64,000 nt of DNA from Cyanidioschyzon merolae (taxonomy: Eukaryota), in assembly GCA_000091205.1 (NCBI GenBank), contig AP006484.2; one strand, given 5' to 3'. The notes under the pieces were generated by a model. It saw nothing but the letters and a program-made list of their open reading frames with translations. It did no database searches and was not told the origin of the DNA. Both the position numbers and the translations under genes were made by a program. Below are positions 1 through 62,053 of the stretch, one piece after another. Position 1 is the stretch's first letter. Every line of letters begins with the position of its first letter.

Positions 1-1
1 A

Positions 2-2839
2 TCGAAGCCAAGCTCGAGCGGACAGCGCTGGAGAACGCTCGTGCGATTCACGAGTCCCGTCTTTCGAACTTACCGACCGCATTGGCGATACAGCATCTGG
101 AACGTCGTTCTCTGGCCCGAACGGCAGTGCGCTTGGCAGATCGATGGTGGTGGTACGGGCCTGTGCGAACGTCCCGGGGATTACGCTGTCCCCTGGTGTT
201 GCAGTGCGCCCGGGCATTTGGTTCACGACCAGGGGCCCTTTCGCTGCCGACGAGGCTGTCTCCTGTGCCCGTGCCTCAAAAGACACTACGGATTCCTGCT
301 CAGACAGCGGGTGTGGTGCCGAGTCTTTTGCTCTTCTAGACAACTTGTGCCAGACGACAAGCCCCCCATCAGGCATCAGCAGCGTACCTCCCGGGAGTAG
401 CCGTGCATCGCGCGGCACCTGCCAGGAGGCCACCCGTCGAACCCAGGGACGAGGTAAACCCGAGCGTCGACGGTTACTAGATCGTTCTGGAGAGGGCGTT
501 TCCGGCTCTCCAAGGGCAAACAGAGATAGCAATCCCCGCTGCGCACTGAGTGTGAGAAATCTAGGCGTTCGACTCGGTACAGCGATGATATCCGCCTGCG
601 TCTTGGTTCCATCGGACCCCTGCAGGCGTTCTGGAGACTCCACTACAACATGCTCTATCCACGCGACATGCACGGCGGGCACCGCTTTATGCAAGTAGAT
701 CGGGTAAAGCGCCCTGTCACTTGCATAAAAGACGAGCACCCGTCCAGCTCTGTCGACAGCCAGCAACCAGGAAACACCACCGGCCCGCCGACGATTACTC
801 CATCTCGCACACTGCACCACATGATGCGAACCATTATCGTCAAAGGCGCGCTCCAAACGAAGCGTTTCTCGCTGTGGGACCCATTCCAGAAAGCGTTGCG
901 AATGGTACATCGCACGATGGTGTTCTCGCGGCCGCTGTATAAGCGCTGGATGATACACCAGCGAAAAGTCCGCAGGAGCAGTCTTCAAATCGACCTGCTC
1001 TGCACAATCTGTACCTGAGAAATGATGCCCGTGATGTGAGCCCATTCTCATCGACGTATCCAGAGTCTCTGGATCAACAGCACCAGTGGAGGTCCCCGGT
1101 GCACCTTGAGAGGACGCTGCTGCCGGCAACTGCTCGTTCTTCGAGAACATAGCTCGTATGCCGGCATCCGGCCCTGGTCCTTGCACTCTCGAGTCCGCTG
1201 GACACCGCGTTCGTTGCCCAGTGCTCCCTAGTTGGAGCGCTGCGTTCCGATCCCAGTGCCACTGGTATGGAAGGTTCTTGATCAAGCGCTTCGCCTGCTG
1301 TTGCCATTTTTTCGCGAGCTTGTAGGCGGTGGCTGCGGCGCGAGCACCACGACTCGGACATGGAGCAGCCCAGACACCCACTGCAGGAGAGCGACCAGCT
1401 GTGATCACGTAAAATCTCGACGCCCCTGCTCCGTCACTGCGAGACTGCTGGCCTTGCTGCACCGTGTCGGGTAGATGAGCGATCCAGTGCGCGCTGATCC
1501 AGGTTGATCTAGCCTTTTGCGGTAACGACCATTCGTGAACCCAAGCGGTTGCCGTATCACAGGCGTCCGTCGAATCTGGAACGTCACCCACAGTCGTCAC
1601 GAGCGCAATGGTATCCAGCACTAGAACGGAGCCGTCGGGATGCGAAACGCTTACGAGACCTTTGGCAGAGGCGTTGAGGGCGCAGCGGTCCTCAGTCCAG
1701 GCCGCTGTCTGGCCTTGATCAGCATTCGGGACACGGTGATACGTATCTCGACCCCAGAGGTGAGCTTGCACGCTTGCAACGCCGCCTATAGAGCTGGATG
1801 TGCAAGCTTCGTTTGAATGGATCAAGGTAGAGAGCAACGCTCCAGTTTCCAGCGCCGGTACTCTGAAGCAAGCTAGTATGCCTTGCTCATAAGCTATCCA
1901 GAGCCAGTGCGTTGCAACAGCAGTGGCAGGAGAAGTAGTAGTAGAAATCAAGTCCATTTCCTGCTGCTCATCAACAGACGCTGGTGCCTTTTGCAGCGCT
2001 GATGCATCCGCCGTCTGCCCACTGGGAACAAAGCAAGCATCCCAAACTGGCCTCGGGGCAGCAGCAACAGCAGCAGCAGCAGAACAATCAGCAGCCGTGA
2101 ACACCCTACCACTGGAGGAACTCTCCATCACCGACTGCGTCTGTGCTTCACAGGAGGCCCCTGGAGACGAGTGCACATGCAACGGCGCCGCAGATGCGGA
2201 AGATACCCTCTTCCCGTGCATGTGCGCTGGTGTCTGCTGGTCCCTCGGCGATATCTGGGATACCCGTTGCAAATTCGAAGCATCGGCTTCTTCGAAGGCA
2301 GGCTGTTCGAGTAGCCACCATCGGGACGCAGCCGCCGAAGCAATCGACACTGCAACTAGGATTGCGCGCTGATTCCACCTACAGACCATGTAGAGTGTAG
2401 ATGTTCCAGGCTCGAGCAGCTCTGGTCCCGCCAACACCTCCAGAGACAGATGAAGCTGGGCTGCCTCGTTCGGTTCCCGCTGCGACACGACTGAAGCGCT
2501 CCAGGGCAGAATCGGACCCAGTGATGCAGCGGATGATGCTGTCGTTGGATTCAAAATCTGTTGCATCGCTCCGTAAGCATTGTTCGGTATTCTTGATATC
2601 GGACGAGTCTGAGGCGGCATAACTGCAAGCGAGCCGGTTTCAGCTTGCGATACGTTTCGTCGCGTCCAAGCAGGAGCAGTTCCTACCTCGCCGTTCTCAT
2701 CAGCGTATGGACGCAAGGCACCTCGAGGTGACGCGTCCAAGCGCGAAGAATCTGTCTCAGCAGGTCCGCGCAGTTCGCTTGGCAGCGTGCATAGCAAAAA
2801 AGGAACAGGATCCGTTTGCCCTTGGCATGGCGTATGCAT
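2..2839 (-). CDS. large hypothetical protein, 5' portion only (C-terminus lies beyond the left window edge); Ala/Ser/Pro-rich low-complexity N-terminal third followed by beta-propeller-like repeats (GSVLVLD, RVLVFYASD, GGLVVWH)
   Basis: Hand translation of the minus strand in the frame with codons at [3k+2..3k+4]. There is no stop codon from the in-frame TGA at 3095-3097 (minus strand) down to position 2, about 1031 codons. The first ATG is at 2839-2837. Frame continuity was checked at anchors 2-4, 659-661, 1499-1501, 1955-1957 and 2684-2686. It is absent from the supplied track only because it has no stop inside the window. Codon use is GC3-rich like neighbouring genes. Plus-strand ORFs 41..400, 144..698 and 1923..2372 are antisense to it. 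Confidence 0.5.
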   Translation of the reverse strand, partial: MHTPCQGQTDPVPFLLCTLPSELRGPAETDSSRLDASPRGALRPYADENGEVGTAPAWTRRNVSQAETGSLAVMPPQTRPISRIPNNAYGAMQQILNPTTASSAASLGPILPWSASVVSQREPNEAAQLHLSLEVLAGPELLEPGTSTLYMVCRWNQRAILVAVSIASAAASRWWLLEQPAFEEADASNLQRVSQISPRDQQTPAHMHGKRVSSASAAPLHVHSSPGASCEAQTQSVMESSSSGRVFTAADCSAAAAVAAAPRPVWDACFVPSGQTADASALQKAPASVDEQQEMDLISTTTSPATAVATHWLWIAYEQGILACFRVPALETGALLSTLIHSNEACTSSSIGGVASVQAHLWGRDTYHRVPNADQGQTAAWTEDRCALNASAKGLVSVSHPDGSVLVLDTIALVTTVGDVPDSTDACDTATAWVHEWSLPQKARSTWISAHWIAHLPDTVQQGQQSRSDGAGASRFYVITAGRSPAVGVWAAPCPSRGARAAATAYKLAKKWQQQAKRLIKNLPYQWHWDRNAALQLGSTGQRTRCPADSRVQGPGPDAGIRAMFSKNEQLPAAASSQGAPGTSTGAVDPETLDTSMRMGSHHGHHFSGTDCAEQVDLKTAPADFSLVYHPALIQRPREHHRAMYHSQRFLEWVPQRETLRLERAFDDNGSHHVVQCARWSNRRRAGGVSWLLAVDRAGRVLVFYASDRALYPIYLHKAVPAVHVAWIEHVVVESPERLQGSDGTKTQADIIAVPSRTPRFLTLSAQRGLLSLFALGEPETPSPERSSNRRRSGLPRPWVRRVASWQVPRDARLLPGGTLLMPDGGLVVWHKLSRRAKDSAPHPLSEQESVVSFEARAQETASSAAKGPLVVNQMPGRTATPGDSVIPGTFAQARTTTIDLPSALPFGPENDVPDAVSPMRSVSSKDGTRESHERSPALSARAWLR
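2058..2083. repeat. (CAG/GCT)n trinucleotide microsatellite inside the large minus-strand CDS (encodes an Ala run)
   Basis: gcagcagcaacagcagcagcagca is read directly. On the minus strand it codes AAAAVAAA. Confidence 0.6.
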
Positions 2840-3781
2840 TCTTTTGCGAGAATGGAGCGTCCACGCGTTTCCGTCCGCTCGAAAATCGTATTGAATGCGT
2901 TTTCCCCACCGGTGGCACGGAATGCAGTCGAACTTGGTGTTCGTCTGGGTTTGCCAGTTGTGCCGCGCCCAGCGTTCTGTTGCTTGTCGCACAGGTGGCA
3001 ATGCGTCCAGCCTGAACCTGGTGGGTACCTCTCCCGAAATAACCGATACAGTGATTCGCTTCTGGGCAAGTCCGAAGCAACCCTGTGAGTTGGCTCAATA
3101 AGCCTGCACTGTATAGGCGGGAAACAGGTGTCCATGTAACTTTTTCTGGCGTCGACGTCTTGGAGTCAGGAGGTAACGCGCACACGAGGGCACTCTTTGC
3201 GTTTTCTCACGCAAGCAATCACAGCAGTCCACAGCACGCCGGCTTGCCGACGTCTTGCTGCCAGCGATTTACGCTTACAAGGGAGCACCCGCAGAGTTTC
3301 TGAGTAAGCAAGCAAGGGTCAACCGAGAAGTCCAGTTCCCAGGTACAACAGTCCACCGCGTTCGCTCAGCAGCAAACTTTGTTGCGCGGCAACTAAGAAA
3401 TCCTATCGAGTCCTCAAACTTACGGAAACAAAGCAACTTTCACCCCTCGAGATCCAGTGCTTCTTCTAAGCCATACCTTGGTCCTCCTTTGACGGTTGCA
3501 CGAGGTCTCCAGGGCCCTCTGTACGCAGTAGCAACTCGCCTTGGAGAACATTTCGCGTAACGTATGGCGCGCAGGATTGATGTTCCGCAGGGACGTCTGT
3601 GGGGCACTCGCTCCGCCTCTGAGGCGGACAACGTTCCATAGGCCACTGACTGAACGAAATCGCTCGTGGCGGGGGTTGGGCGTCTTGCGTAGGACGTAAC
3701 CCCGGAGGCGAAGAGGGCCTCAGCGCTAACTGGCTCTTAAGCGGTGCCTCAGGCTTACATGGAGCCTGACGCGTTACAGCA
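2840..3781. promoter_or_regulatory. divergent intergenic region between the large minus-strand gene (ATG 2839) and RNF10-like gene (ATG 3782); presumed bidirectional promoter
   Basis: Lies between two divergently oriented start codons. It is AT-richer than the flanking coding DNA and has no supported ORF. Confidence 0.2.
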
Positions 3782-5983
3782 ATGGCTGAGCGGCAGCGTT
3801 GGTGTCTCCAGCGACGGCACCTGTGTCTCGTTTTACGTCCAGAAGCCGGACAACGCTTACGCGAATACCTGGAGCACCCAGACGTTGTTCCAGACTGGAA
3901 CGACGTTGAGTTTGTGGCCGAGCACTCGGATACCGACGTTCCGAGAGCAAACGCTCGAGCAAAGGCTCCCAACGGTGCACGAGACAGCGTAGCGGCGGTC
4001 CCAGAAGCACTGAAAGCGTTATCGTTAACAGACGACGTTGAAGGCCCCGTGGATCCGATCACGCTCGGCGTTTTGCGTGCTCCGTATACCACCCCATGTG
4101 GCCATGTGTATTCAGCGCTGGCGATTGTGCGACACCTGCTCGTAACGTTCGAACGAGCCCGCCCAAGGGGCGTCGAAGACAACACTTGTCAGGTTGGAGA
4201 CGCGCTGCAGTTACTCGCACGGTGCCCCGTATGCACCGACTGGTTCTCTTTTGATGATCTTCGTCCCTATGTTTCCTGGCACAGTCCGACACCGCTAACC
4301 CTGCATTCCCGCATCCGAATGCGTCTGTTGTGCCGCCCTCGGGGTTGTGCGTCCCGTATCATGCTACCTCGAGACTGGATCGACACAACAGAGGCCAAAC
4401 TGTTGTGGTCGGTCGGCGCCAGCACCAAGGCTTCGGAGAAACAGCACGCGCCTGCAGCCATAGCGGATCCCGACCGTACTCAGTGGCATACTGACCAAAC
4501 GCAGTCTACGACAATCAAAGCGTTAGCAGATACGTTTTGCCAGCGTATGATGACTACACCGGTAGCGGAGGACGGAGACGAGCAGCTACTTCCCTCGAGG
4601 AAAAACGGGCGCTTCTATCGGGTCTTGCTCGGGGAACCTGATTTTGTAGAGGAGCTCTTCGTCAGCCGGGAAGCGGAGTTGCAACAGCATCTAATGGAAG
4701 ATGAAACGATGGAGCTGGCGCACACGCTGGTGATGCATCGCGAGCGCGCTCGCAGAGCGACCGTGAAGCGAATAACCCAGCAGATAGAGACCGCTTCATG
4801 GTCGAAGCAGGAACCCTTCGAACCTTTCCTGGCAAACGAGATCGCTCCGTCGCAGTCGAAACGCTTACCGGCTGAAGTGGCCGCTCGGGCAACCGTTGAG
4901 GACCCGCTGGACCTTCCACAGCGGCAAGCGATGCCTCCGGCACGCACTGACGCTTGCCCTGCACCCGAGAAAGCGTCGATTGCCGTAGAGTACGTCGGAC
5001 TGTACCAGATTGCAGATGGTCGACAAGTTTACATGCATCCGCAAAACTATCGAGCACTGCTCCAACAGTACGGATCGGTGGAAAAGCTTCCGCTTTGGAT
5101 CCAGGGTAGCCTTCTCAGCTGCTATGAATGTCGCACCGAAGAGAAGAAGGCGCGCGCCTGGAGAGGCCGCAGCGCCCATGCAAGTTTCCCGAGAGATCCA
5201 GAGGCATCCAATTGTCGTCAGTTTCACTTACCCGTACCGCTACCGCCGGGCTGTGTGTACTTTGTATGCAAACTGGCATTCGGAGATACGGAAACACCGC
5301 GATGTCGCCGCTATCGTCAGCGAGGAGGTGGAAACGTTCATCCGTCGCACGCATCAGGCGCTGTGCAGCAGCCGCCAGCATTTGCTAGCCGAGAAACCGG
5401 TTCAGAAAACCCTTTTAGCACTTCAAGCGCGCATCGTTCGGTGCCTATGTCGAGACAGACGAAGGCACACCGCAACCGACCTGTGCCCAAACCACAAAAA
5501 GAGGTATCTCGTGGAGCGGAACATGTTCAAACCCCAAGAGAGCGACAGCGCGGGCAACCGCGTCTACGCAGCTCAGAACCGTCGCTGCGGGAAGTCTTCG
5601 AACAAGAGCGTCAGCATATCATCGAAGCGCACGGTGGTGCGCAATTATTCTTCCGTGATCCAAGTCGGGAAGCACTGGATCACACTCGACCCTTTTCGCG
5701 AGCAGTTTCTCATCAGCATCCACCGCCGGCTAGCGAGCGGCACGAAATTGCAGAGCGCGCTTCTACCTGGCCTGCGCTGAGCTCGACAATGCTGCCTGCA
5801 GTGGAGCAGGCACCACAGTCTACCGGGGAGCAAATCCAAGCATCTAATGTTTCCTACGCCCGCATTGCGCAAGTGCGGGGAGGATACTACCCCACCCTGC
5901 GCGACTTGTATGGTCATGCGGAATATGTGCGACCCGCAGCAACATCTGCATCCGAGAGCAAAGATAACCACAAGCCGAACTAG
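3782..5983 (+). CDS. RNF10: RNF10-like RING finger protein (733 aa) with a degenerate RING in which zinc site I is lost
   Basis: Single 733-aa ORF. Block VVPDWNDVEFV matches the RNF10 motif VNWDFVEQV. DPITLGVLRAPYTTPCGHVYSALAIVRHLL...CPVCTDWF aligns to human RNF10 [29 protein letters not shown]...CPICYSSV. GLYQIADGRQVYMHPQNYRALLQQYGSVEKLP aligns to RNF10 [29 protein letters not shown]. The RNF10 sequence is from memory. Confidence 0.6.
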   Translation: MAERQRWCLQRRHLCLVLRPEAGQRLREYLEHPDVVPDWNDVEFVAEHSDTDVPRANARAKAPNGARDSVAAVPEALKALSLTDDVEGPVDPITLGVLRAPYTTPCGHVYSALAIVRHLLVTFERARPRGVEDNTCQVGDALQLLARCPVCTDWFSFDDLRPYVSWHSPTPLTLHSRIRMRLLCRPRGCASRIMLPRDWIDTTEAKLLWSVGASTKASEKQHAPAAIADPDRTQWHTDQTQSTTIKALADTFCQRMMTTPVAEDGDEQLLPSRKNGRFYRVLLGEPDFVEELFVSREAELQQHLMEDETMELAHTLVMHRERARRATVKRITQQIETASWSKQEPFEPFLANEIAPSQSKRLPAEVAARATVEDPLDLPQRQAMPPARTDACPAPEKASIAVEYVGLYQIADGRQVYMHPQNYRALLQQYGSVEKLPLWIQGSLLSCYECRTEEKKARAWRGRSAHASFPRDPEASNCRQFHLPVPLPPGCVYFVCKLAFGDTETPRCRRYRQRGGGNVHPSHASGAVQQPPAFASRETGSENPFSTSSAHRSVPMSRQTKAHRNRPVPKPQKEVSRGAEHVQTPRERQRGQPRLRSSEPSLREVFEQERQHIIEAHGGAQLFFRDPSREALDHTRPFSRAVSHQHPPPASERHEIAERASTWPALSSTMLPAVEQAPQSTGEQIQASNVSYARIAQVRGGYYPTLRDLYGHAEYVRPAATSASESKDNHKPN

Positions 5984-6468
5984 TTCGGAGGCAATCCCTT
6001 GGAACGAGTCCAAATCTCTGGAAGCGCTCCGCATTCGGTGCGCTGTGGCTCGATGCAGCGCTCCAGTGTCGCACCAAATCTTGCATCTATCTTTGAAGAC
6101 ATAGACGCATCGGGTACAGTGCCTGGATCAATATTCTATGGTTTCGCTGCGTTGGTCAGCACGCAAGCGCTTTCGATACCGAATGCGGAAGCAATGATCT
6201 GGCCCTAGGCGGAACGCTTCGGTTCCCGAAACATTCGCCTCCTGGGATGCGCAGCTGGAAATCATTCAACGCTACGCCCCGCTGCTTCATACGCCTCGCG
6301 ATGAAGCACTTGAGCAGTGCATCAGACTTGGCGGTCGGTTACAGCCCTAACTGCGGATCCGGAGGCAGATCTCCTGCTCACAGCTGCGTCTGCGGTGGTT
6401 GGTCTCGGTCACCAGCTCCGCGTAGACACTGACCATACGGTCTGGTTTGGCCCCAGCAATGTGCTGCG

Positions 6469-7623
6469 CTAGTGTGCCTGCTCAGTTTCTGCGTTCGCGG
6501 AAAAATCACAGAGTCGAGGTCGTGTCCACAGGTACCAAGCAACACCGAAGAACGGTATCCATCGGGCTACGCCCAACATACGTGTTCCCTTCTGACTCTG
6601 TGGGTTTAAGCCTCGTCGACGCATATCGTCGGGCACCAGCTCAGCCTGGAACAGCGCAAAGACCAGCATATCAATTGGAAAGGACACTGCTAGACGATCT
6701 TTCTGTAGAAATGCCTGCCAATAGAGCTGGAAACGCTCTAGCGTAAATGGTGGTGCCGCTGGGTACTCTGGACGACCCGCGAACGCCCAGAGCATTGCAA
6801 ACAAGGCCACAACGCAGAGGATCAGGGGTAAGCCGCGGGACTCGGCTATCCGCAGCAGCATATCAGCTTCGCTGTGCCTCGCTGCTACCGTTTTTTTCGT
6901 AGATGTGAATGGTCGCAGCGAATGCTCTGATGAATCCGTGTCTACGATGGTTGCAAGGCTGCTGGGGTTCTGGCGCAGCACCAGGTACGGCAAGTAGAAG
7001 ACATTGGTGAGCAGTGCGGAGCCTACCAGGAAGACCCACATGGGCAGTATTTGTTTTTGTACTTGCTTTTGAGCGGTGCGGCAATGCCGGCTAATGTCAT
7101 CGCTGAGAAAGCCGATAAAGAGTAACGCCCAGCATACGACAATCTGGAAGGTGCTCTCCAGAACCGGGTGCAAAACTGGGGCCTGGCTAGGACTTAAAAG
7201 CGGAAGGATGAAAAAAAAGTTCATAGATAGGTCCAGAGCCTCATGAATGGTCTCGCTGTCGATACGGAAAACACTAGACCCCGGTAAAAGGTCTGAACAG
7301 AGCACGACACCCACGTACACGAGCCAGCAGACAAAGATTAAGGCCTTGCGGTGCGTCGGCTTTGCCTGCTTCATCACTAGCTGGTGTAGGCGACTTGTTG
7401 TCGCGCTCGCTGTTCGTTTCAGAGCATAGACGGCAAAGGGTTTTCCCTGGGAAAACAAACGATGCGCGCAGTTGATGAACGGGTAAGCAACGGTGAGCTT
7501 TGCGTGGACGCTCCCGCGTCTCGAGGCAGCACTGCATACGACGCTGCGGTTGCGCGAGCTCAAGCACAATGATAGCGTCCTCCGAGTAACGTGACTGCAA
7601 CCTGAGCCCAAAAACAACAGCAT
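6469..7623 (-). CDS. hypothetical multi-pass membrane protein (384 aa), Ser/Arg-rich N-terminus suggestive of a presequence
   Basis: Complete ORF with at least six hydrophobic segments: IFVCWLVYVGVVL, FFFILPLLSPS, IVVCWALLFIGFL, ILPMWVFLVGSALL, LILCVVALFAMLWAF, WIPFFGVAWYLW. Codon bias is GC-rich. No family was recognised. Confidence 0.4.
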   Translation of the reverse strand: MLLFLGSGCSHVTRRTLSLCLSSRNRSVVCSAASRRGSVHAKLTVAYPFINCAHRLFSQGKPFAVYALKRTASATTSRLHQLVMKQAKPTHRKALIFVCWLVYVGVVLCSDLLPGSSVFRIDSETIHEALDLSMNFFFILPLLSPSQAPVLHPVLESTFQIVVCWALLFIGFLSDDISRHCRTAQKQVQKQILPMWVFLVGSALLTNVFYLPYLVLRQNPSSLATIVDTDSSEHSLRPFTSTKKTVAARHSEADMLLRIAESRGLPLILCVVALFAMLWAFAGRPEYPAAPPFTLERFQLYWQAFLQKDRLAVSFPIDMLVFALFQAELVPDDMRRRGLNPQSQKGTRMLGVARWIPFFGVAWYLWTRPRLCDFSANAETEQAH

Positions 7624-9348
7624 TCAGAGGACTTGAGTAATCTAGTTCCGTCGTGTTCCCCGTCACCTCCGCGAGACCAGCCCGGTGAGCGCACCGTACC
7701 CGCACCAAGACCAGTCATAGCCGCGGTCATGGTTATATGGACTTGTCGGGGCTGGTTGCATCCGATGCAGCGCTATTGGAAAGCAGCCCCCAAACATAGC
7801 GGTGTCATCGACTGGTCCAACTTGCATGTGAAGCGATCGCTCCTGTTGCCCTAAAATAAAGTCTTTCAGCCGATTAACCTTCATGGTAGAAAAACGGAAC
7901 TGGTCGTCTAGTTCGGGCGTACACGCGAAAGTTTAGGCACTTCCATGATCATCATATATACCAGTCTTGACGAATTTTTCTGTGACTAGTGCCTTGTCTC
8001 TCCGTTGATCTGTAGCTCTAAGTACGCCGATCTTTCCTCTCCCTCTGGCTGCGTTTCCAGCAGCAGAAGCATGTGTTGATGACAGCGTTCGAGTCCCGAT
8101 TTCTCCGCTTCTGCTTGTAGGCTACGCATTTCGTGCACAGGCGGTCGTTGCGATCTGAGCTTCGTATACCATATTCTTTTTCTCGTGTATGCACAGCCTC
8201 GGTGGGTCCATCGCAGCTGCGAAACTTGACAGCGGTACGTTGTATCCATCCGTCCGCCATAGGTTTTCGTCCTCCGACGGTCGTCCTGTGCCGCAAAAGC
8301 ATTCGCTGCATCGCTCGGTTCATGCCCTTGACAAGCATAGAAGGCTCCCTCGATACCCGTCTCCGTACCCAGCGATGATGATGTGCTTTGTATGAAAGAT
8401 CCGCACGGTGAGTACGCTCTACGCCGCGTATGGCAGCGCATGCTGTTCCAGTCGATGTGCGATTTCTGGACCGCTATGTTAGCCATGATGATGAGACAAG
8501 CACCGGAGGTGAAATCCAGGTATGAAAAGAGATCGAGAAGTTCCGAGTCTACGACCCTATTCTGTGTCAATAGAGGAGACGTTAGCGTATATGATCGTGT
8601 ATCATGAAGCGTGACACGCTGGTGAGGCATGCGCGTTTGCGGATGCGCACAGAGCGAGGACGATTCTCGTTTCGCATGAAATAGATAACTCGACAAGTTC
8701 AGCGAGCGTTCGTTATGAGCATATGCAAAAGTCATCAAGGGACGACGTCGTGTGCAGTTCCTTGATCATCAAGCAGTGCGCATTGCATTGCGTACAGGCT
8801 GCCCCGAAACAAAAACAGATAGAGAACTTGAAGAAACTGTGATTCGAGCATGCGACACGTAAGTAAATCAGAGGTGTTCTGGCTTGTACGTATGAAGTGT
8901 ATCACGACATCGTTTATTTTATCGACCTGGTTCGAGGATGGTGCGAAGCATCCTGATGCCCATGACGTAACGAATTCAAGCGACTAGAACGCAAAGGAGT
9001 CGTTTAGAAACCCCAACGGAGAAATCCAGAATAACGTATGCATCCATAAGCCCTAATTGCTGCACTTGGAGTATCGATGCTGTAAGTGTAAGAATAAGTT
9101 CGGAAAAGAATTGCAAGGCGCGTACAGAGCGACCGGTTCCGTGCTCCATTCCAATCTGAGGAAGGCCAGGAACACCACGTCAGGGACGTGGCGACTTGTA
9201 CGCGTGACTGTCGACAGTTCTCACTGGGTGCCACAGGAACTGCGCGAATCAGTCCAGGAACTGTACGTGTTTTCGTTTCGCTGGGGCATAGCAGGGCCGG
9301 CGTGGATAGCGCACCACGCTCGCTTCCATAGCAGGAACGGAGGCGAGC

Positions 9349-10140
9349 ATGGGTCTCCTGAGCGTTATTCGCAAGCAGAAACGCCGTGATCGAGAAGTCC
9401 GCGTTCTCGTGCTCGGTCTCGATAACGCTGGTAAGACCACCATAGTGCGAAGGCTGCTTGGAGACGACGAAGCTGCCGTGAGACGAACAGCGCCCACTGA
9501 AGGTTTTTGTATTCGAACACTCGTACTGAAAGGCGGGTATCGTTTCCACTTTTGGGATATCGGTGGTCACCGGGCGCTCCGATCCTACTGGCGAAACTAT
9601 TTTGAGCGGACGGATGCGATTATCTGGGTAGTCGACGCAACGACGCCGCATCGAATTAAGGGAGAAGCTGCTCAGGAGCTAGCCGCCCTGCTGTCGGAGC
9701 CGAGTCTGTACCAGGTGCCTCTCTTAATCATCGCAAATAAGATGGACTTGCTAGCCGCGGAACCTGTCTCATCGGTGCGCAAAGCGCTTGGCATCGATGC
9801 CTTCTGCGTTGCAGGAGCAGCAGCAACAATAGCAACAGCAACAATAGCAACTCCGACGAGCCGAAGAACCCCGTTAGAGGCGAATCAGCAGACCGCCTCT
9901 GACACGATGGCTTCGACATGGGCACAGGCTTGGCCTGCTGATGAACTCAGTCAACTGGATGGACGACGACCCATCCATGTCATGCCATGTAGTGCCTACA
10001 CTGGCGAGGGACTGTCGAATGCCCTGGATTGGCTTGCTCAGCAGGCTATCCAGCGCCTGTATCGTTTCGATACCAGAGGCGATTTACGATCATCACCGTC
10101 ATGTGTTCTTTCCGAGCAGCAGCATTCGGTGGCGCTCTAA
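9349..10140 (+). CDS. ARL2: ADP-ribosylation factor-like GTPase 2 (ARL2) with an in-frame ~50-aa low-complexity insertion
   Basis: [68 protein letters not shown] matches ARL2 [61 protein letters not shown]. The C-terminal [12 protein letters not shown] matches TGENLLPGIDWL. Confidence 0.8.
   Translation: [263 protein letters not shown]
9814..9852 (+). repeat. imperfect (GCA/ACA)n trinucleotide repeat encoding [12 protein letters not shown] inside ARL2
   Basis: ggagcagcagcaacaatagcaacagcaacaatagcaac is read directly. It sits in frame inside the ARL2 ORF. Confidence 0.6.
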
Positions 10141-12688: not shown

Positions 12689-14017
12689 ATGGCAGAGCGC
12701 AGCGTGCAAGAAGCGCTCGAAGACATCTTCGGTTCCGACGAAGAAAACGAGCAAGTTACCGCACCGTCGGGGACTGTCGATGAGCAGACCACCACCTTGG
12801 ATGTTGCAGCGAGCAGGGGTCTGCATGATCACCTTAGCAAGCAGCCTAGCGATACGCACGAGCCGAGCGTACCCCAGGTTGACGCTTCTGGGGATACTGC
12901 ATCCCGTACCGATGACTTCATCGACGTCTCTGCTGCCGATCCGGAGCTGCTCCGTGAGGACCCCGATGACGTGATTCGAACCGAGGGTGGATGGTCATCC
13001 CGCTCTGCAAGTGAGGACGAGGATCAGTTGAGCGATGAGGGTGCTCGCCATCCATTGACCGCATTCGATCGCACCATGCGGCAGATCCAGTCTCGTAGGC
13101 AAAGAAAGCAAATCACCAACCGGGAAAGTGAAAGGGATGCAGAACGAATCCTGGAAAAGATGCGCTCTGCTTACGATGCGGATCTCATTATGGCGAGGTT
13201 GGGCCGCCCAGCGCTCGCAAAACTTCGCCTTTTGCCGGAAGTGGATACTGAGCTGCGGCGGAAAGAGATCCGAACAACACTCATCCGCCGCGGGCTCTTT
13301 GAGGTGCTTCGACGCTGGTTGGATCCGTTGCCAAACGGGGCGCTACCCTCGATTGACGTCCGCTCAACATTGATGGATATTCTGCTTACGTTTCAGACGA
13401 GAGTGAGCGATTCAGAGGATGAACTCGAGGAAGAAGAGACCGCAACCGAGTTGCAACGCTCTTCGGCACGACGTGCAGGAACCAGAGCGTGGGAGCGCGC
13501 GCTCCTGAACTCCGGCCTTGGGCGTTGTATTCACTACTACAAGCTATATGATCCAGACCCCGCTTGTCAGCTCAAAGCAGAGCGTCTGGTGATGCGCTGG
13601 GCAGCTGCAGTGCTGCACTCCGATACAAACTATCGCAACGCCTTGCATAAGCGTTACGAAATGGTGCCGGCTCGGAGCGGCTCGCAAGCGCAACGTCGAG
13701 AAACACCGAACAGAACCTCTGGTGCAACTGACTTGCCGGCAAAGCACGAAACTGCGAGCAACGCTCCAGGTTTACCGGCCACCGCGACGCCGGATCATTT
13801 CACAAACCCGATGAAGTCAAGCGCACCTGCGGTGTTAGCCGCGGCGCTTCCCGAACGTCCATCAGGCGACTGGAAGCGGATCCCACAGGTTGGAGAGTTA
13901 CCTGCTGTTCCCCGGATGCGCTCCGTTCGAGAGAAACAAATGAGCAAACACTTGAAACGGATTCGCGATACGGTTCAGATGAGCGGATTCGAGCGCGGGG
14001 TCTCGACAACGAGGTAG
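12689..14017 (+). CDS. IWS1: IWS1/Spn1-family transcription elongation factor (442 aa)
   Basis: Acidic N-terminus followed by an IWS1-C/TFIIS-N-like block: LLPEVDTELRRKEIRTTLIRRGLFEVLRRWLDPLPNGALPSIDVRSTLMDILLTF. Single ORF. Confidence 0.7.
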   Translation: MAERSVQEALEDIFGSDEENEQVTAPSGTVDEQTTTLDVAASRGLHDHLSKQPSDTHEPSVPQVDASGDTASRTDDFIDVSAADPELLREDPDDVIRTEGGWSSRSASEDEDQLSDEGARHPLTAFDRTMRQIQSRRQRKQITNRESERDAERILEKMRSAYDADLIMARLGRPALAKLRLLPEVDTELRRKEIRTTLIRRGLFEVLRRWLDPLPNGALPSIDVRSTLMDILLTFQTRVSDSEDELEEEETATELQRSSARRAGTRAWERALLNSGLGRCIHYYKLYDPDPACQLKAERLVMRWAAAVLHSDTNYRNALHKRYEMVPARSGSQAQRRETPNRTSGATDLPAKHETASNAPGLPATATPDHFTNPMKSSAPAVLAAALPERPSGDWKRIPQVGELPAVPRMRSVREKQMSKHLKRIRDTVQMSGFERGVSTTR

Positions 14018-41840: not shown

Positions 41841-43619
41841 CTATGCCTTTTTGACTGTTGACTCGCGCGCGAGTGCAGCGCTTCCCCGCGGATCCAGCAG
41901 AACGACATCATTGACGGTGACCGCGTGGCTGAGCACCGGGCTTCCATGCATAGCTTCCGCGTCCGTGGAAACGGGTGCCCCAGAGGCTCCACCGGCGCCG
42001 CCAAAGCGCATTGCAGCTGCTCGCCACAGACTCTGATAGAGATTTGCATAGGCCGCTCTTTCACTCTGAGTTGAGAAGAAACAAATCGTAGCTGAAGCCA
42101 TCGTCCAAGTGAAATAGCGCCATAAGCTGGCTTCTTCGGACGGTGTGCAGAGCGCCCTGTCCCAGGAAATGGCGTAAAAGTCGTAGGCCAGCCACGTGGA
42201 TGCTACCAATCGCAAAAAACTGATCATCACATAATGCTTCAAGCTCGAATCAGGGCGTGGCGAGTGCATATAACTAGCCGCGCTTATCAGCACGGACTCA
42301 CGGAGCAAAAGGCGAATGCACTGTGTGATCCACAACAACGAATACGTCGCCGCAATCATGCATTGAACGAACCCGAAGCGCAAAACGCTCGCCAATCTCG
42401 CGATGTGCTGCGTATCACCACGAAGCAGCAACTGCGACAGAAACAGAACGAATCCAAGCAAACCAAACACCAGGTTTCCCATCGCTTCCACCGCACTGGT
42501 CGTTGCCTGCTGCGCATATCGGGTGACGATTGCTCCAGCGAGGCTCACGGTCAGAAGCAACGCCAGGAACTGCAGGACGCCAACCATCAGTTGCGAAGTG
42601 AGCTGCCACCAGCTCGCGTCCCGGTTCAACCCTCGCCCGTGCAACATCGGAGGGTCCGCGGGCGCAGGCAACTGTGCGCCCAGGTGCGCGTCTCGTGTGT
42701 CGGAGGCGGTCGCTTCTAGCGCGCTGTTGATTGCAGTCGACCCGCCGTGGCCCGAAAACTCGTTACGACAATGCTGTAAAAGTGACTCGAGCGCACGCTT
42801 CTCTTCGGCGCATTCCTGTCGGGCGACGTTGACTGCCGCCTTGCAGGATGCATCGTTCTCTGTTACCCGCCATTGATCACGGGGACCGGCCGCAGCGAAA
42901 AGCGCTTGGCGCAGATCACCTGCTTGCTTTAGCAAGCTATCTCTTTCGCGGGCTACGCGACCCAGTTGGTCTTGTAGCATCAACTCTCGGTCGCGGAGCG
43001 CCTTATACTCGAATCGAAGTTCCGAAACGTTCGCAACATCGGGGTCGAAAAAAAGATTCTTGATCACAATCGATCCAACGCGGGTGTCCTTTACCAGGGA
43101 AATGATAGGCCTCTCTGGACGCTCTGTGAGGAACGCGTGCCAGTCGCCGAAACCGTAGTCCAACTCGTGTCGTCGCTCAAGCTCCGCACGTTGCTGCTCG
43201 GGCGGAAGTTTCGCCTTCTGCAAGCGAGACAGCGCTCCACGTTGTCCTTGTTCCAAGCGAGCTGAGACTGTTTCAGCCTCACTCGCTATGCCGAAAACCG
43301 TCTTGGGTAGCGTGTCGGAGCCAGTGGCACCGCGTTCACCGACGCTCGCTGGTGAGCTCCCAGTTGCTGGCAGCAACACCACAAGCAAAAGCAACAATAG
43401 GAAAGAGGTCAACGTCAAGCAGTGCCAAGATGCGGGTGTGAAAATATGTCGCGTGCGCCCAGGCTGCACCATTGGTGGGAGGCAAGACCCCGAGAACCCG
43501 CTCCTGCTGAAGAGAATGAGCTCAACAATCCAAAATCGAGTTGCGCGAAGAATTCGGCTCACGACGTCGATGATAGGCGAACAAATGGGGGCGTTGGCGG
43601 CGGCGTACCGTCCGTCCAA
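41841..43619 (-). CDS. hypothetical membrane protein: N-terminal signal/anchor, ~300-aa coiled-coil region, five C-terminal transmembrane helices (592 aa; ATG at 43478 MVQPGRTR may be the real start)
   Basis: LTLTSFLLLLLLVVLLPATG signal-like. Coiled-coil FEYKALRDRELMLQDQLGRVARERDSLLKQAGDLRQALF. TM helices MVGVLQFLALLLTVSLAGAIV, LVFGLLGFVLFLSQLLL, FGFVQCMIAATYSLLWI, VMISFLRLVASTWLAYDFYAI, YFTWTMASATICFF. No family recognised. Confidence 0.5.
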   Translation of the reverse strand: MDGRYAAANAPICSPIIDVVSRILRATRFWIVELILFSRSGFSGSCLPPMVQPGRTRHIFTPASWHCLTLTSFLLLLLLVVLLPATGSSPASVGERGATGSDTLPKTVFGIASEAETVSARLEQGQRGALSRLQKAKLPPEQQRAELERRHELDYGFGDWHAFLTERPERPIISLVKDTRVGSIVIKNLFFDPDVANVSELRFEYKALRDRELMLQDQLGRVARERDSLLKQAGDLRQALFAAAGPRDQWRVTENDASCKAAVNVARQECAEEKRALESLLQHCRNEFSGHGGSTAINSALEATASDTRDAHLGAQLPAPADPPMLHGRGLNRDASWWQLTSQLMVGVLQFLALLLTVSLAGAIVTRYAQQATTSAVEAMGNLVFGLLGFVLFLSQLLLRGDTQHIARLASVLRFGFVQCMIAATYSLLWITQCIRLLLRESVLISAASYMHSPRPDSSLKHYVMISFLRLVASTWLAYDFYAISWDRALCTPSEEASLWRYFTWTMASATICFFSTQSERAAYANLYQSLWRAAAMRFGGAGGASGAPVSTDAEAMHGSPVLSHAVTVNDVVLLDPRGSAALARESTVKKA

Positions 43620-60949: not shown

Positions 60950-62053
60950 GTGGGCACGGTCAAGAGAACTGAACCAGCGCAGCTACGTAAGGCACTAGGG
61001 ACCTATGAGCTTGTGAGCATTAGTGCTGCAGCTCAAGTTGCGTGCACTTTTGTCCGAAACTCGCCTAGAACAAAGTTAGTCTTGCGCTCTAATCTCTACG
61101 AGAGCGCAGAGTCCACACTCACAAGAGGCAGCATGTACGCTTCCGAGACTGCCTCAACGCAGGGGCTTCCTGCACTGGAGCTGGATCCGGAGGAGCTGCT
61201 GGCACAGGTACAGCTGCTTCGCGCCGCGGTTGAGGGTTCTCGTCGAGAGTCCCGCGAGCTCGTAGGCGCTCTAGAGCGAGAGCGGCGTTTGAACTTGGAA
61301 ATGCGTCAAAGATTCGAAAGACAGTTCGCTGCTGTATCGGACCAGCTTCTGCAGCTGAACCACTTGCAAAAGGAGTCGGAAGCCTTGCTTCAAAGTTTAC
61401 AGGAGCAGCTGAACGAGGCCGAGTTGCAAAAAAATGCAGCCCAGCGGGAGCTCGCGTGTGTGCAACGACAACTGAGCCTAGCACGGGCAGAGGCAGACGC
61501 GGGGAAGCGTGTCCTAACCACGATCGCTGAAAAAGAGGCGTTGCTGCGTAAGACATCACAAGCGAACGCTGACTTGCAACAGATCGTCATGCACTTGCAG
61601 GCTGAGCTCCGTAATTCAGAACTACAACCGTCAACGTCGAATGCTTCTGAGGAGCGGCTTCACGAGGCCGAAATACCTTCGTTGGCTGACCGCGATGCAT
61701 ATCAGACGTTGCAACAAACGATTGAGAAACTGTCCGCGGAGCGTGACATGTGGTACCACGAATGCGCCCGCGCCAAGGAGGAATCGCTTCGCTTGCAACA
61801 GGATGCAGAGCGGCTTCGCGGGCTTCTTGACGAGCAACAGCGCGTCCATACCACTACCCAGACGTTGCTGCAGGATCGGCACTTGCTCATGCGTCGCATT
61901 ATTGCAGCACTTGCAGAGAAGTATCTCATGGAGAAACTACCTAATCAACACTACACCCAGGAAATAGATTCGTCCCCGTTTCAAGCACGTGGAGGAACCT
62001 CTGTACAAGAAGCCCATAAGCATGAAAGATTGCGTCGAGCGCGGTCTTTTTAG
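60950..62053 (+). CDS. hypothetical coiled-coil protein (367 aa)
   Basis: Complete GC-rich ORF with long heptad-like stretches: LQLNHLQKESEALLQSLQEQLNEAELQKNAAQRELACVQRQLSLARAEADAGKR..LQQIVMHLQAELRNSEL. No specific family recognised. Confidence 0.4.
   Translation: MGTVKRTEPAQLRKALGTYELVSISAAAQVACTFVRNSPRTKLVLRSNLYESAESTLTRGSMYASETASTQGLPALELDPEELLAQVQLLRAAVEGSRRESRELVGALERERRLNLEMRQRFERQFAAVSDQLLQLNHLQKESEALLQSLQEQLNEAELQKNAAQRELACVQRQLSLARAEADAGKRVLTTIAEKEALLRKTSQANADLQQIVMHLQAELRNSELQPSTSNASEERLHEAEIPSLADRDAYQTLQQTIEKLSAERDMWYHECARAKEESLRLQQDAERLRGLLDEQQRVHTTTQTLLQDRHLLMRRIIAALAEKYLMEKLPNQHYTQEIDSSPFQARGGTSVQEAHKHERLRRARSF

Follow-up and report, generated by a model that had tools for sequence, protein, structure and literature searches.

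The 64,000-nucleotide stretch of Cyanidioschyzon merolae DNA analyzed here (contig AP006484.2 of assembly GCA_000091205.1; "the window" below means this whole stretch) carries, at positions 3782–5983 of the plus strand, a gene of the RNF10/Mag2 family. Human RNF10 and yeast Mag2 act on 40S subunits that are stalled or non-functional, where they mono-ubiquitinate uS3 (K212/K214) and, in mammals, uS5 as well (PMC11604940, PMC12008924). An earlier sequence-only reading of the window had proposed that this gene is the RNF10 orthologue and that its RING domain has lost exactly the four ligands of zinc site I while retaining all four of site II. Both proposals are borne out by our analysis, which further indicates that the same half of the RING was lost separately in chlorophytes. 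The gene comprises the following parts.

3782–5983 (+), complete gene of the RNF10/Mag2 orthologue (single open reading frame, upstream stop, profile search, gene order)
3782–3922 (+), N-terminal RNF10 block, residues 1–47, including PDVVPDWNDVEF, which matches the family block FLQANxRF...PDxxxDWxxVexV
4052–4144 (+), first half of the RING-like domain, residues 91–121, including P92-I93 at the predicted site of contact with ubiquitin-conjugating enzyme (E2), assigned from codons and register
4145–4216 (+), variable insert from the central helix to the last Cys pair, residues 122–145, including the non-conserved C134
4223–4234 (+), C148-P-V-C151, the retained C7/C8 pair of zinc site II
4235–4426 (+), RNF10-specific beta-rich extension after the RING, residues 152–215, DLRP...RMRLLCRPRG
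4982–5281 (+), C-terminal RNF10 domain, residues 401–500, with LYQIADGRQVYMHPQNYRALLQQYGSV at 4997–5080 and a 21-residue Cyanidiales-specific insertion
5567–5656 (+), block RSSEPSLREVFEQERQHIIEAHGGAQLFFR, residues 596–625, found in Cyanidiales only among the sequences retrieved
5852–5899 (+), C-terminal family motif SYARIAQVRGGYYPTL, residues 691–706

The gene is a single, uninterrupted, intron-less open reading frame (ORF) of 733 codons plus stop, with an in-frame stop nine codons 5' of its ATG. Its first twelve residues, MAERQRWCLQRR, are the same in the homologue of Cyanidiococcus yangmingshanensis, and the gene model is therefore sound. The protein is 98% identical to protein P0001 and 42% identical over the full length to Cyanidiococcus F1559_000716; no database record of exactly this protein was found. 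Three independent metagenome contigs (L002, L003 and L004, about 99% identical in nucleotide sequence) encode the same RING sequence as the window. With the ORF intact, and its start and stop kept, in four independent assemblies, misassembly or an intron in this region, which the sequence-only reading had named as a way in which it could fail, is ruled out.

By both position and sequence the gene is a cyanidialean red alga's orthologue of RNF10/Mag2, as profile search, four family blocks and gene order agree in showing. A HMMER search of 1.84 billion representative proteins, with a profile of the window protein and the two relatives nearest to it, gave 81 matches (E ≤ 1e-3). Nearly all the full-length ones have the RNF10 architecture, which runs from an upstream block with PDxxxDWxxVE at its end through a RING and a beta-rich stretch to a C-terminal YQxxDG...HPxN...YGS domain, the last being the best-scoring stretch for most of the 81. 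A second homology search gave just the two close relatives with a full-length profile of 15 sequences, probably because its candidates were taken up by low-complexity words, and short fragments with a trimmed profile of 22. Those that carry a name are called 'RING finger protein 10' (Chlorella vulgaris, Picochlorum), and the same set contains P0080 and P0033, which are close to the canonical metazoan RNF10 RING motif. The window protein has the N-terminal PDxxxDWxxVexV block as HPDVVPDWNDVEFV at residues 32–45, with a tryptophan (W39) that is invariant in all alignments. A hidden Markov model (HMM) built only from canonical members (53 RNF10-type fragments, each with a fully canonical RING) aligns residues 23–50 weakly as its first domain. 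Beyond the RING the alignment to this HMM extends to residue 194, L160 and R185 are nearly invariant, and the length of the variable insert differs across the family. The C-terminal pattern YQxxDGxxx[FY][LM]HPxNxxxLxxxYGS...HLP is present as LYQIADGRQVYMHPQNYRALLQQYGSV...VPLPPGC (residues 407–491) and aligns with all relatives. The terminal motif S[YF][AS]x[IV]...[FY]PxL lies near the C-terminus of 20 retrieved family members (the window protein and 19 others), reading SYARIAQVRGGYYPTL in the window protein and SYAKIASVAGGYFPAL in Porphyridium. The two flanking blocks by which the orthologue was originally recognized, VVPDWNDVEF (residues 35–44) and GLYQIADGRQVYMHPQNYRALLQQYGSV (residues 406–433), are thus present.

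Gene order agrees with this assignment. Positions 1–10100 of the window are colinear with the Cyanidiococcus RNF10 locus (VWRR01000019.1) through two upstream genes, RNF10, a 384-residue ORF (6469–7623, minus strand) and an Arf-family GTPase region (about 9347–10077), and an ABC1 kinase gene lies further downstream in both, although the RNF10 proteins of the two are only about 40% identical. Compared with RNF10/Mag2, the algal protein has the same N-terminal block, RING register (P-I-x-L...T-x-C-G-H...C-P-x-C), post-RING extension, C-terminal domain and terminal motif; it differs in lacking the long N-terminal low-complexity region, in carrying an extra C-terminal insertion and the conserved block at residues 596–625, and in having four RING ligands replaced. 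The insertion (window positions 5135–5215, about residues 452–478) is 21 residues long in four of four cyanidialean sequences and occurs in no other aligned member; it is preceded by a C447-x-x-C450 pair that is conserved in three of those four.

In a cross-brace RING, C1, C2, C5 and C6 form zinc site I, and C3, H4, C7 and C8 form site II. Read directly from the codons, the RING of the window protein is D91-P-I-T94-L...C106-G-H108-V-Y-S111-A-L-A114...C148-P-V-C151. The four site-I positions are occupied by D91 (C1; 4052–4054, GAT), T94 (C2; 4061–4063), S111 (C5; 4112–4114) and A114 (C6; 4121–4123), and the four site-II ligands are all retained as C106 (C3; 4097–4099), H108 (H4; 4103–4105), C148 (C7; 4223–4225) and C151 (C8; 4232–4234, TGC). 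Four of the eight ligands of a C3HC4 RING are therefore present. If four of eight ligands were lost at random, the chance that they would be exactly those of site I is 1/70; this is simple combinatorics, and the pattern also recurs across genera.

Could a different alignment register restore site I? A MAFFT alignment of the window protein with 23 diverse relatives is free of gaps from the C1 to the C6 position. The canonical-only HMM, which matches the window protein at E 3e-19, aligns residues 92–194 with a score of 49 bits (E 2.8e-17) and places T94, S111 and A114 on C2, C5 and C6, and C106-G-H108 and C148-P-V-C151 on its CGH and CPxC; D91 directly precedes the aligned stretch, at the C1 position. 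A profile made only from four sequences of Cyanidiales finds solved RING domains as its best Protein Data Bank (PDB) matches and sets D/T/C/H/S/A/C/C, in order, on the eight ligand positions of the TRIM21 RING (E 1e-3), and a mixed family profile aligned to BRCA1 gives the same register. The only other Cys or His within residues 85–151 are H118 and C134. The former occupies a position that is His or Tyr, and not a ligand, in canonical relatives as well, and the latter lies in the variable insert and is not conserved. Since there is no spare Cys or His and three profile alignments agree, no alternative register rebuilds site I; a shift in register, the other way in which the sequence-only reading might have failed, is ruled out.

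The loss of site I is lineage-wide in Cyanidiales, a point that the sequence-only reading had proposed to check. The pattern D/T/C/H/S/[A or S]/C/C occurs in every cyanidialean sequence found, namely the window, L002–L004, Cyanidiococcus, the P0094 lineage and two Cyanidium caldarium strains (NCBI places these genera in Cyanidiales). A scan of metagenomes returned only copies about 99% identical and no Galdieria-like relative. Porphyridium aerugineum, a red alga outside the Cyanidiales, has a canonical RING (CSICL...CGHVFCHCC...CPLC). A similar half-RING is found in 12 chlorophyte-type representatives, in which C2, C5 and C6 are lost and C1 is kept (C/[S,T,D]/C/H/[S,D]/[S,A,G]/C/C); every named one of the 12 is a chlorophyte (Picochlorum, Chlorella, Tetraselmis, a pedinophyte, Chromochloris and Pleodorina), and the streptophyte Spirogloea is canonical. 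In a neighbor-joining tree of 212 conserved columns, with the four ligand columns masked and 200 bootstrap replicates, the Cyanidiales are monophyletic in 197/200, the Cyanidiales and the chlorophyte half-RINGs group together in 0/200, and most chlorophytes adjoin canonical streptophyte sequences. The absence of any joint grouping, together with the canonical RINGs of Porphyridium and Spirogloea, rules out a shared origin of the two losses; there have been at least two independent losses of site I, neither of which touched site II.

The family also contains other RINGs that are partly altered, and site I seems to be its evolutionarily labile site. Five representatives among P0050, P0057, P0058, P0081, P0072, P0031 and P0015 have C5 changed to D or N and then a His (CGHVFDHVC or CGHIFNHVC); among the same relatives one has C5 changed to S alone and one has C1 changed to R. 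We found no paper on RNF10 in algae and no report of the one-zinc RNF10 pattern.

The degenerate RING is not decaying. We scanned conservation in 30-residue segments across four cyanidialean genera or lineages. Residues 89–118 are 50% invariant, compared with 16.5% for the whole protein, and form the third most conserved such segment; the second lies within the C-terminal RNF10 domain, and the first is the RSSEPSLREVFEQERQHIIEAHGGAQLFFR block (residues 596–625), with 60% invariant positions. The N-terminal block has 40% and the variable insert 0%. In the RING, D91, P92, I93, T94, L95, C106, G107, H108 and S111 are all invariant in the four, so that the replacement residues D91, T94 and S111 are themselves fixed. 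Within the RSSEPSLREVFEQERQHIIEAHGGAQLFFR block, a tblastx segment over window positions 5576–5656 matches Cyanidiococcus with 89% identity; none of the RNF10 relatives retrieved from outside the Cyanidiales has the block, which appears from these comparisons to be a lineage-specific conserved element. Over a wider range, among 22 aligned canonical and half-RING members, I93, T104, C106, G107, H108, C148, P149 and C151 are invariant; P92 is invariant in 15 of 15 half-RINGs and nearly so across the 22, and L95 is nearly invariant. The E2 contacts of RINGs and U-boxes, namely the Pro-Ile that follows C1, a Leu just past C2 and a Pro just past C7, are retained.

Polymorphism tells the same story at a finer scale. 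The four near-identical haplotypes (the window, L002, L003 and L004) differ in amino acid at 16 codon sites, none of which is in the RING. Indeed, although the conserved blocks account for 37% of the protein, they contain none of the 16 (binomial P = 6e-4), and this distribution rules out a pseudogene. There are four purely silent sites, and codon 126 has both a silent and a replacement change. The ratio of replacement to silent changes is high (12:2 in comparison with L002) because the linkers, in which all the replacements lie, are long and poorly constrained. Divergence in the gene (0.73%) is about equal to that in the rest of the aligned contig (0.80%), and the linkers therefore evolve nearly neutrally.

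No RNF10 structure was found in the PDB by sequence. We modeled residues 29–213 with AlphaFold2, as the sequence-only reading had recommended for the RING region, using both a mixed alignment and an alignment of half-RINGs only. With both alignments the model has a RING-like fold, with predicted local distance difference test (pLDDT) values of 87–98 in the RING core and 90–96 in the first post-RING strands, and low values at residues 129–145. By parts, pLDDT is 92–98 for residues 91–121, 52–55 for the insert, 75–96 for the post-RING strands and 90 for residues 39–48. The modeled fold clearly belongs to the RING/U-box/SP-RING class. Fold searches do not separate the three: RING and U-box structures score equally, and the CHIP and LubX U-boxes are among the top structural neighbors.

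SP-RINGs are active SUMO ligases (E3s). In the SP-RINGs of the Siz/PIAS SUMO ligases the distal zinc is kept and the proximal one is absent, and in the UBR4 hemiRING the proximal zinc is kept and the distal one is absent; both are hybrid U-box/RING folds (PMC10873205). The algal RNF10 has the same ligand layout as the SP-RINGs, with C-x-H...C-x-x-C at the distal site, where zinc is predicted from the ligands, and D/T/S/A at the proximal site. The Pfam zf-Nse model, which describes MIZ/SP-RING domains, matches 13 of 15 half-RINGs (best E 1.8e-6) but only one of eight canonical RNF10s. The window protein itself scores 18.9 bits at full length and 21.9 as a fragment, below the gathering cut-off of 27. 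By comparison, zf-C3HC4 is passed by all eight canonical RNF10s; the window protein falls below its threshold and passes no RING model. Pfam detects no SAP/PINIT or Smc5-binding domains in the window protein, whose flanks are RNF10-specific. True SP-RING membership is ruled out by the sub-threshold score and the wrong domain context, and these two facts indicate a convergence of ligand pattern rather than membership in the SP-RING family: the algal domain comes from a ubiquitin-ligase family, it is not homologous to SP-RINGs beyond the RING superfamily, and there is no evidence of SUMO involvement.

The other two precedents fit less well. U-boxes (CHIP, Prp19, Ufd2 and LubX) have a RING-derived fold held by hydrogen bonds and salt bridges instead of zinc ligands, and the U-box loop-1 motif, C-P-I-[S/T], is the one on which the chlorophyte half-RINGs have converged. 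U-boxes, however, have lost both zinc sites, whereas site II is intact and invariant in the algal RNF10; the Pfam U-box model matches one of the 15 half-RINGs and does not match the window protein. The UBR4 hemiRING, like the algal domain, is a RING derivative of a ubiquitin E3 that has a single zinc and, in place of the other site, a hydrogen-bond network (both predicted in the alga). It has been shown experimentally to be active, with E2 bound on the usual surface (PMC10873205). UBR4-type identity is nevertheless ruled out, since the hemiRING retains the opposite, proximal zinc site; it also requires a UZI helical subdomain, which the algal protein lacks, its post-RING region being predicted to be beta-rich. 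On these ligand patterns the nearest precedent is the SP-RING rather than a pure U-box.

What does such a domain do? We put at roughly 0.6 the probability that the algal RNF10 is an active one-zinc RING/U-box hybrid ligase that still docks E2~ubiquitin and marks the 40S subunit. In this proposal the two-zinc C3HC4 cross-brace would have become a one-zinc domain in which the distal site II (C106, H108, C148 and C151) still holds zinc. Side chains that are small and either polar or aliphatic (D91, T94, S111 and A114) would have taken the place of the proximal site I, and the first loop would most likely be held to the central helix by hydrogen bonds, as in U-boxes and SP-RINGs, with D91, T94 and S111 as the putative network. 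The RING fold and its E2-docking surface (P92-I93, L95 and P149) would thereby be kept and could still recruit E2~ubiquitin, and the N-terminal block, the post-RING sheet and the C-terminal YQxxDG...HPxN domain would position the RING on the 40S subunit. We infer the one-zinc stoichiometry, the hydrogen-bond replacement, E2 binding, ligase activity and the ribosomal substrate alike. We favor a working domain because the E2-contact residues are conserved, the domain is under purifying selection and the RING-like model is a confident one. The sequence-only reading had left two outcomes standing, a fold kept by a U-box-like hydrogen-bond network and a loss of E2 binding or catalysis; the same three considerations favor the former and make the latter less favored.

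Several points weigh against activity. Human RNF10 with C1 and C2 mutated (C225S/C228S) no longer ubiquitinates uS3 (PMC11604940), and these are two of the four ligands that the alga has replaced. Loss of site I is thus not tolerated without compensation, and the compensation in the alga is a predicted one. P-I and C-P could be conserved for the sake of structure or ribosome binding and not for that of E2 binding. A basic 'linchpin' residue after C8 is missing in RNF10 family members, the window protein having T152 there, and on this sequence feature allosteric activation of E2~ubiquitin by the family may be weak anyway. AlphaFold2 confidence is no independent proof, as the program does not include zinc and was trained on RING folds, and the case for activity as a whole is built from sequences and models. 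Finally, a canonical paralogue may be present elsewhere in the genome, our view being that of the 64-kb window.

The main rival reading is a pseudo-ligase, in which the RING-like domain would have ceased to bind or activate E2, the protein would be a non-catalytic 40S-binding factor acting, for example, as a sensor, adaptor or competitor, and its conservation would be due to binding of the ribosome or a partner; we regard this as unlikely, but it merits serious consideration. The dead human mutant and the missing linchpin both speak for it, as does the finding that other family blocks are at least as conserved as the RING, so that ribosome binding could be the function under selection. Inactive RING partners such as BARD1 and BMI1, however, generally lose their exposed E2-contact hydrophobic residues. 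Here, P92 is unchanged in all the half-RINGs, and I93 and P149 in all 22 members, through two independent half-RING lineages; few parts of the protein are under tighter constraint than the RING core; and both lineages have converged on the loop-1 motif [C/D]-P-I-[S/T]-L that is typical of active U-box and SP-RING E3s.

The SP-RING-like zinc arrangement, and the fact that the best Pfam match is to an SP-RING model, could instead mean that the domain has switched partner, to an E2 other than that of canonical RNF10 or even to Ubc9~SUMO, so that the stalled 40S would be marked differently. This resemblance is the sole positive support for a switch, which we judge improbable: the shared ligand pattern alone explains the resemblance, the zf-Nse scores are sub-threshold, RING and U-box structures score equally well, nothing outside the RING is Siz/PIAS- or Nse2-like, and the number of zinc ions is not known to set E2 specificity. 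If it were true, the mark on stalled 40S subunits in the Cyanidiales and, convergently, in chlorophytes would differ from the uS3 mono-ubiquitin of yeast and mammals.

More improbable still is a two-metal RING in which site I binds metal through non-canonical ligands, the D91 carboxylate with H118 or water. In its favor, some RING variants can use Asp as a zinc ligand, neither D91 nor H118 varies among the Cyanidiales, and in five other members of the family C5 has become D or N with an H next to it. But T94, S111 and A114 are not zinc ligands, and A114 has no ligating atom at all; the H118 position is His or Tyr also in canonical members with a full site I; and the C/S/S/S-or-A of the chlorophytes is likewise insufficient. 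That the whole pattern is an artefact of misassembly, an intron, a pseudogene or misalignment is scarcely credible, since the 12:2 ratio that might hint at relaxed constraint is set against an intact gene in four assemblies, the same pattern in other genera, a single register in three profile alignments and the confinement of all 16 amino-acid polymorphisms to regions outside the conserved blocks.

The window has about 55% G+C, intron-less genes and eukaryotic housekeeping neighbors that include TCP-1, DNA polymerase delta subunit B and the ABC1 kinase. Four long ORFs (367–592 residues) at 6469–7623 (−), 12689–14017 (+), 41841–43619 (−) and 60950–62053 (+) have no Pfam match at E ≤ 1e-5 and are uncharacterized cyanidialean proteins; the first has a conserved counterpart beside RNF10 in Cyanidiococcus, with 57–65% tblastx identity. 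Two further ORFs, 3466–4185 (−; 239 residues) and 5010–5780 (+; 256 residues), lie across the RNF10 gene in a different frame or on the other strand, and are most likely by-products of the 57% G+C composition and not genes.

It was already known that the zinc sites of RINGs are replaceable; new here is a predicted SP-RING-like one-zinc RING in a ubiquitin-ligase family, one that has evolved twice. RING, SP-RING and U-box are regarded as one fold with two, one and no structural zinc, and the transitions among them are normally inferred across unrelated families. In RNF10/Mag2 a single orthologous ribosome-quality-control family holds two-zinc members together with predicted one-zinc members in two algal lineages, and so offers a natural, phylogenetically controlled system for asking what takes the place of a structural zinc and whether an E2 can still be recruited, in an organism, Cyanidioschyzon, that is genetically tractable. 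It also bears directly on the ligase-dead C1/C2 mutants in use for human RNF10. Since screens based on cysteine pattern or on the Pfam C3HC4 model miss half-RING orthologues, RNF10 could be wrongly scored as absent from red and green algae. Were the domain inactive after all, ribosome quality control would have a conserved pseudo-ligase, an informative result as well.

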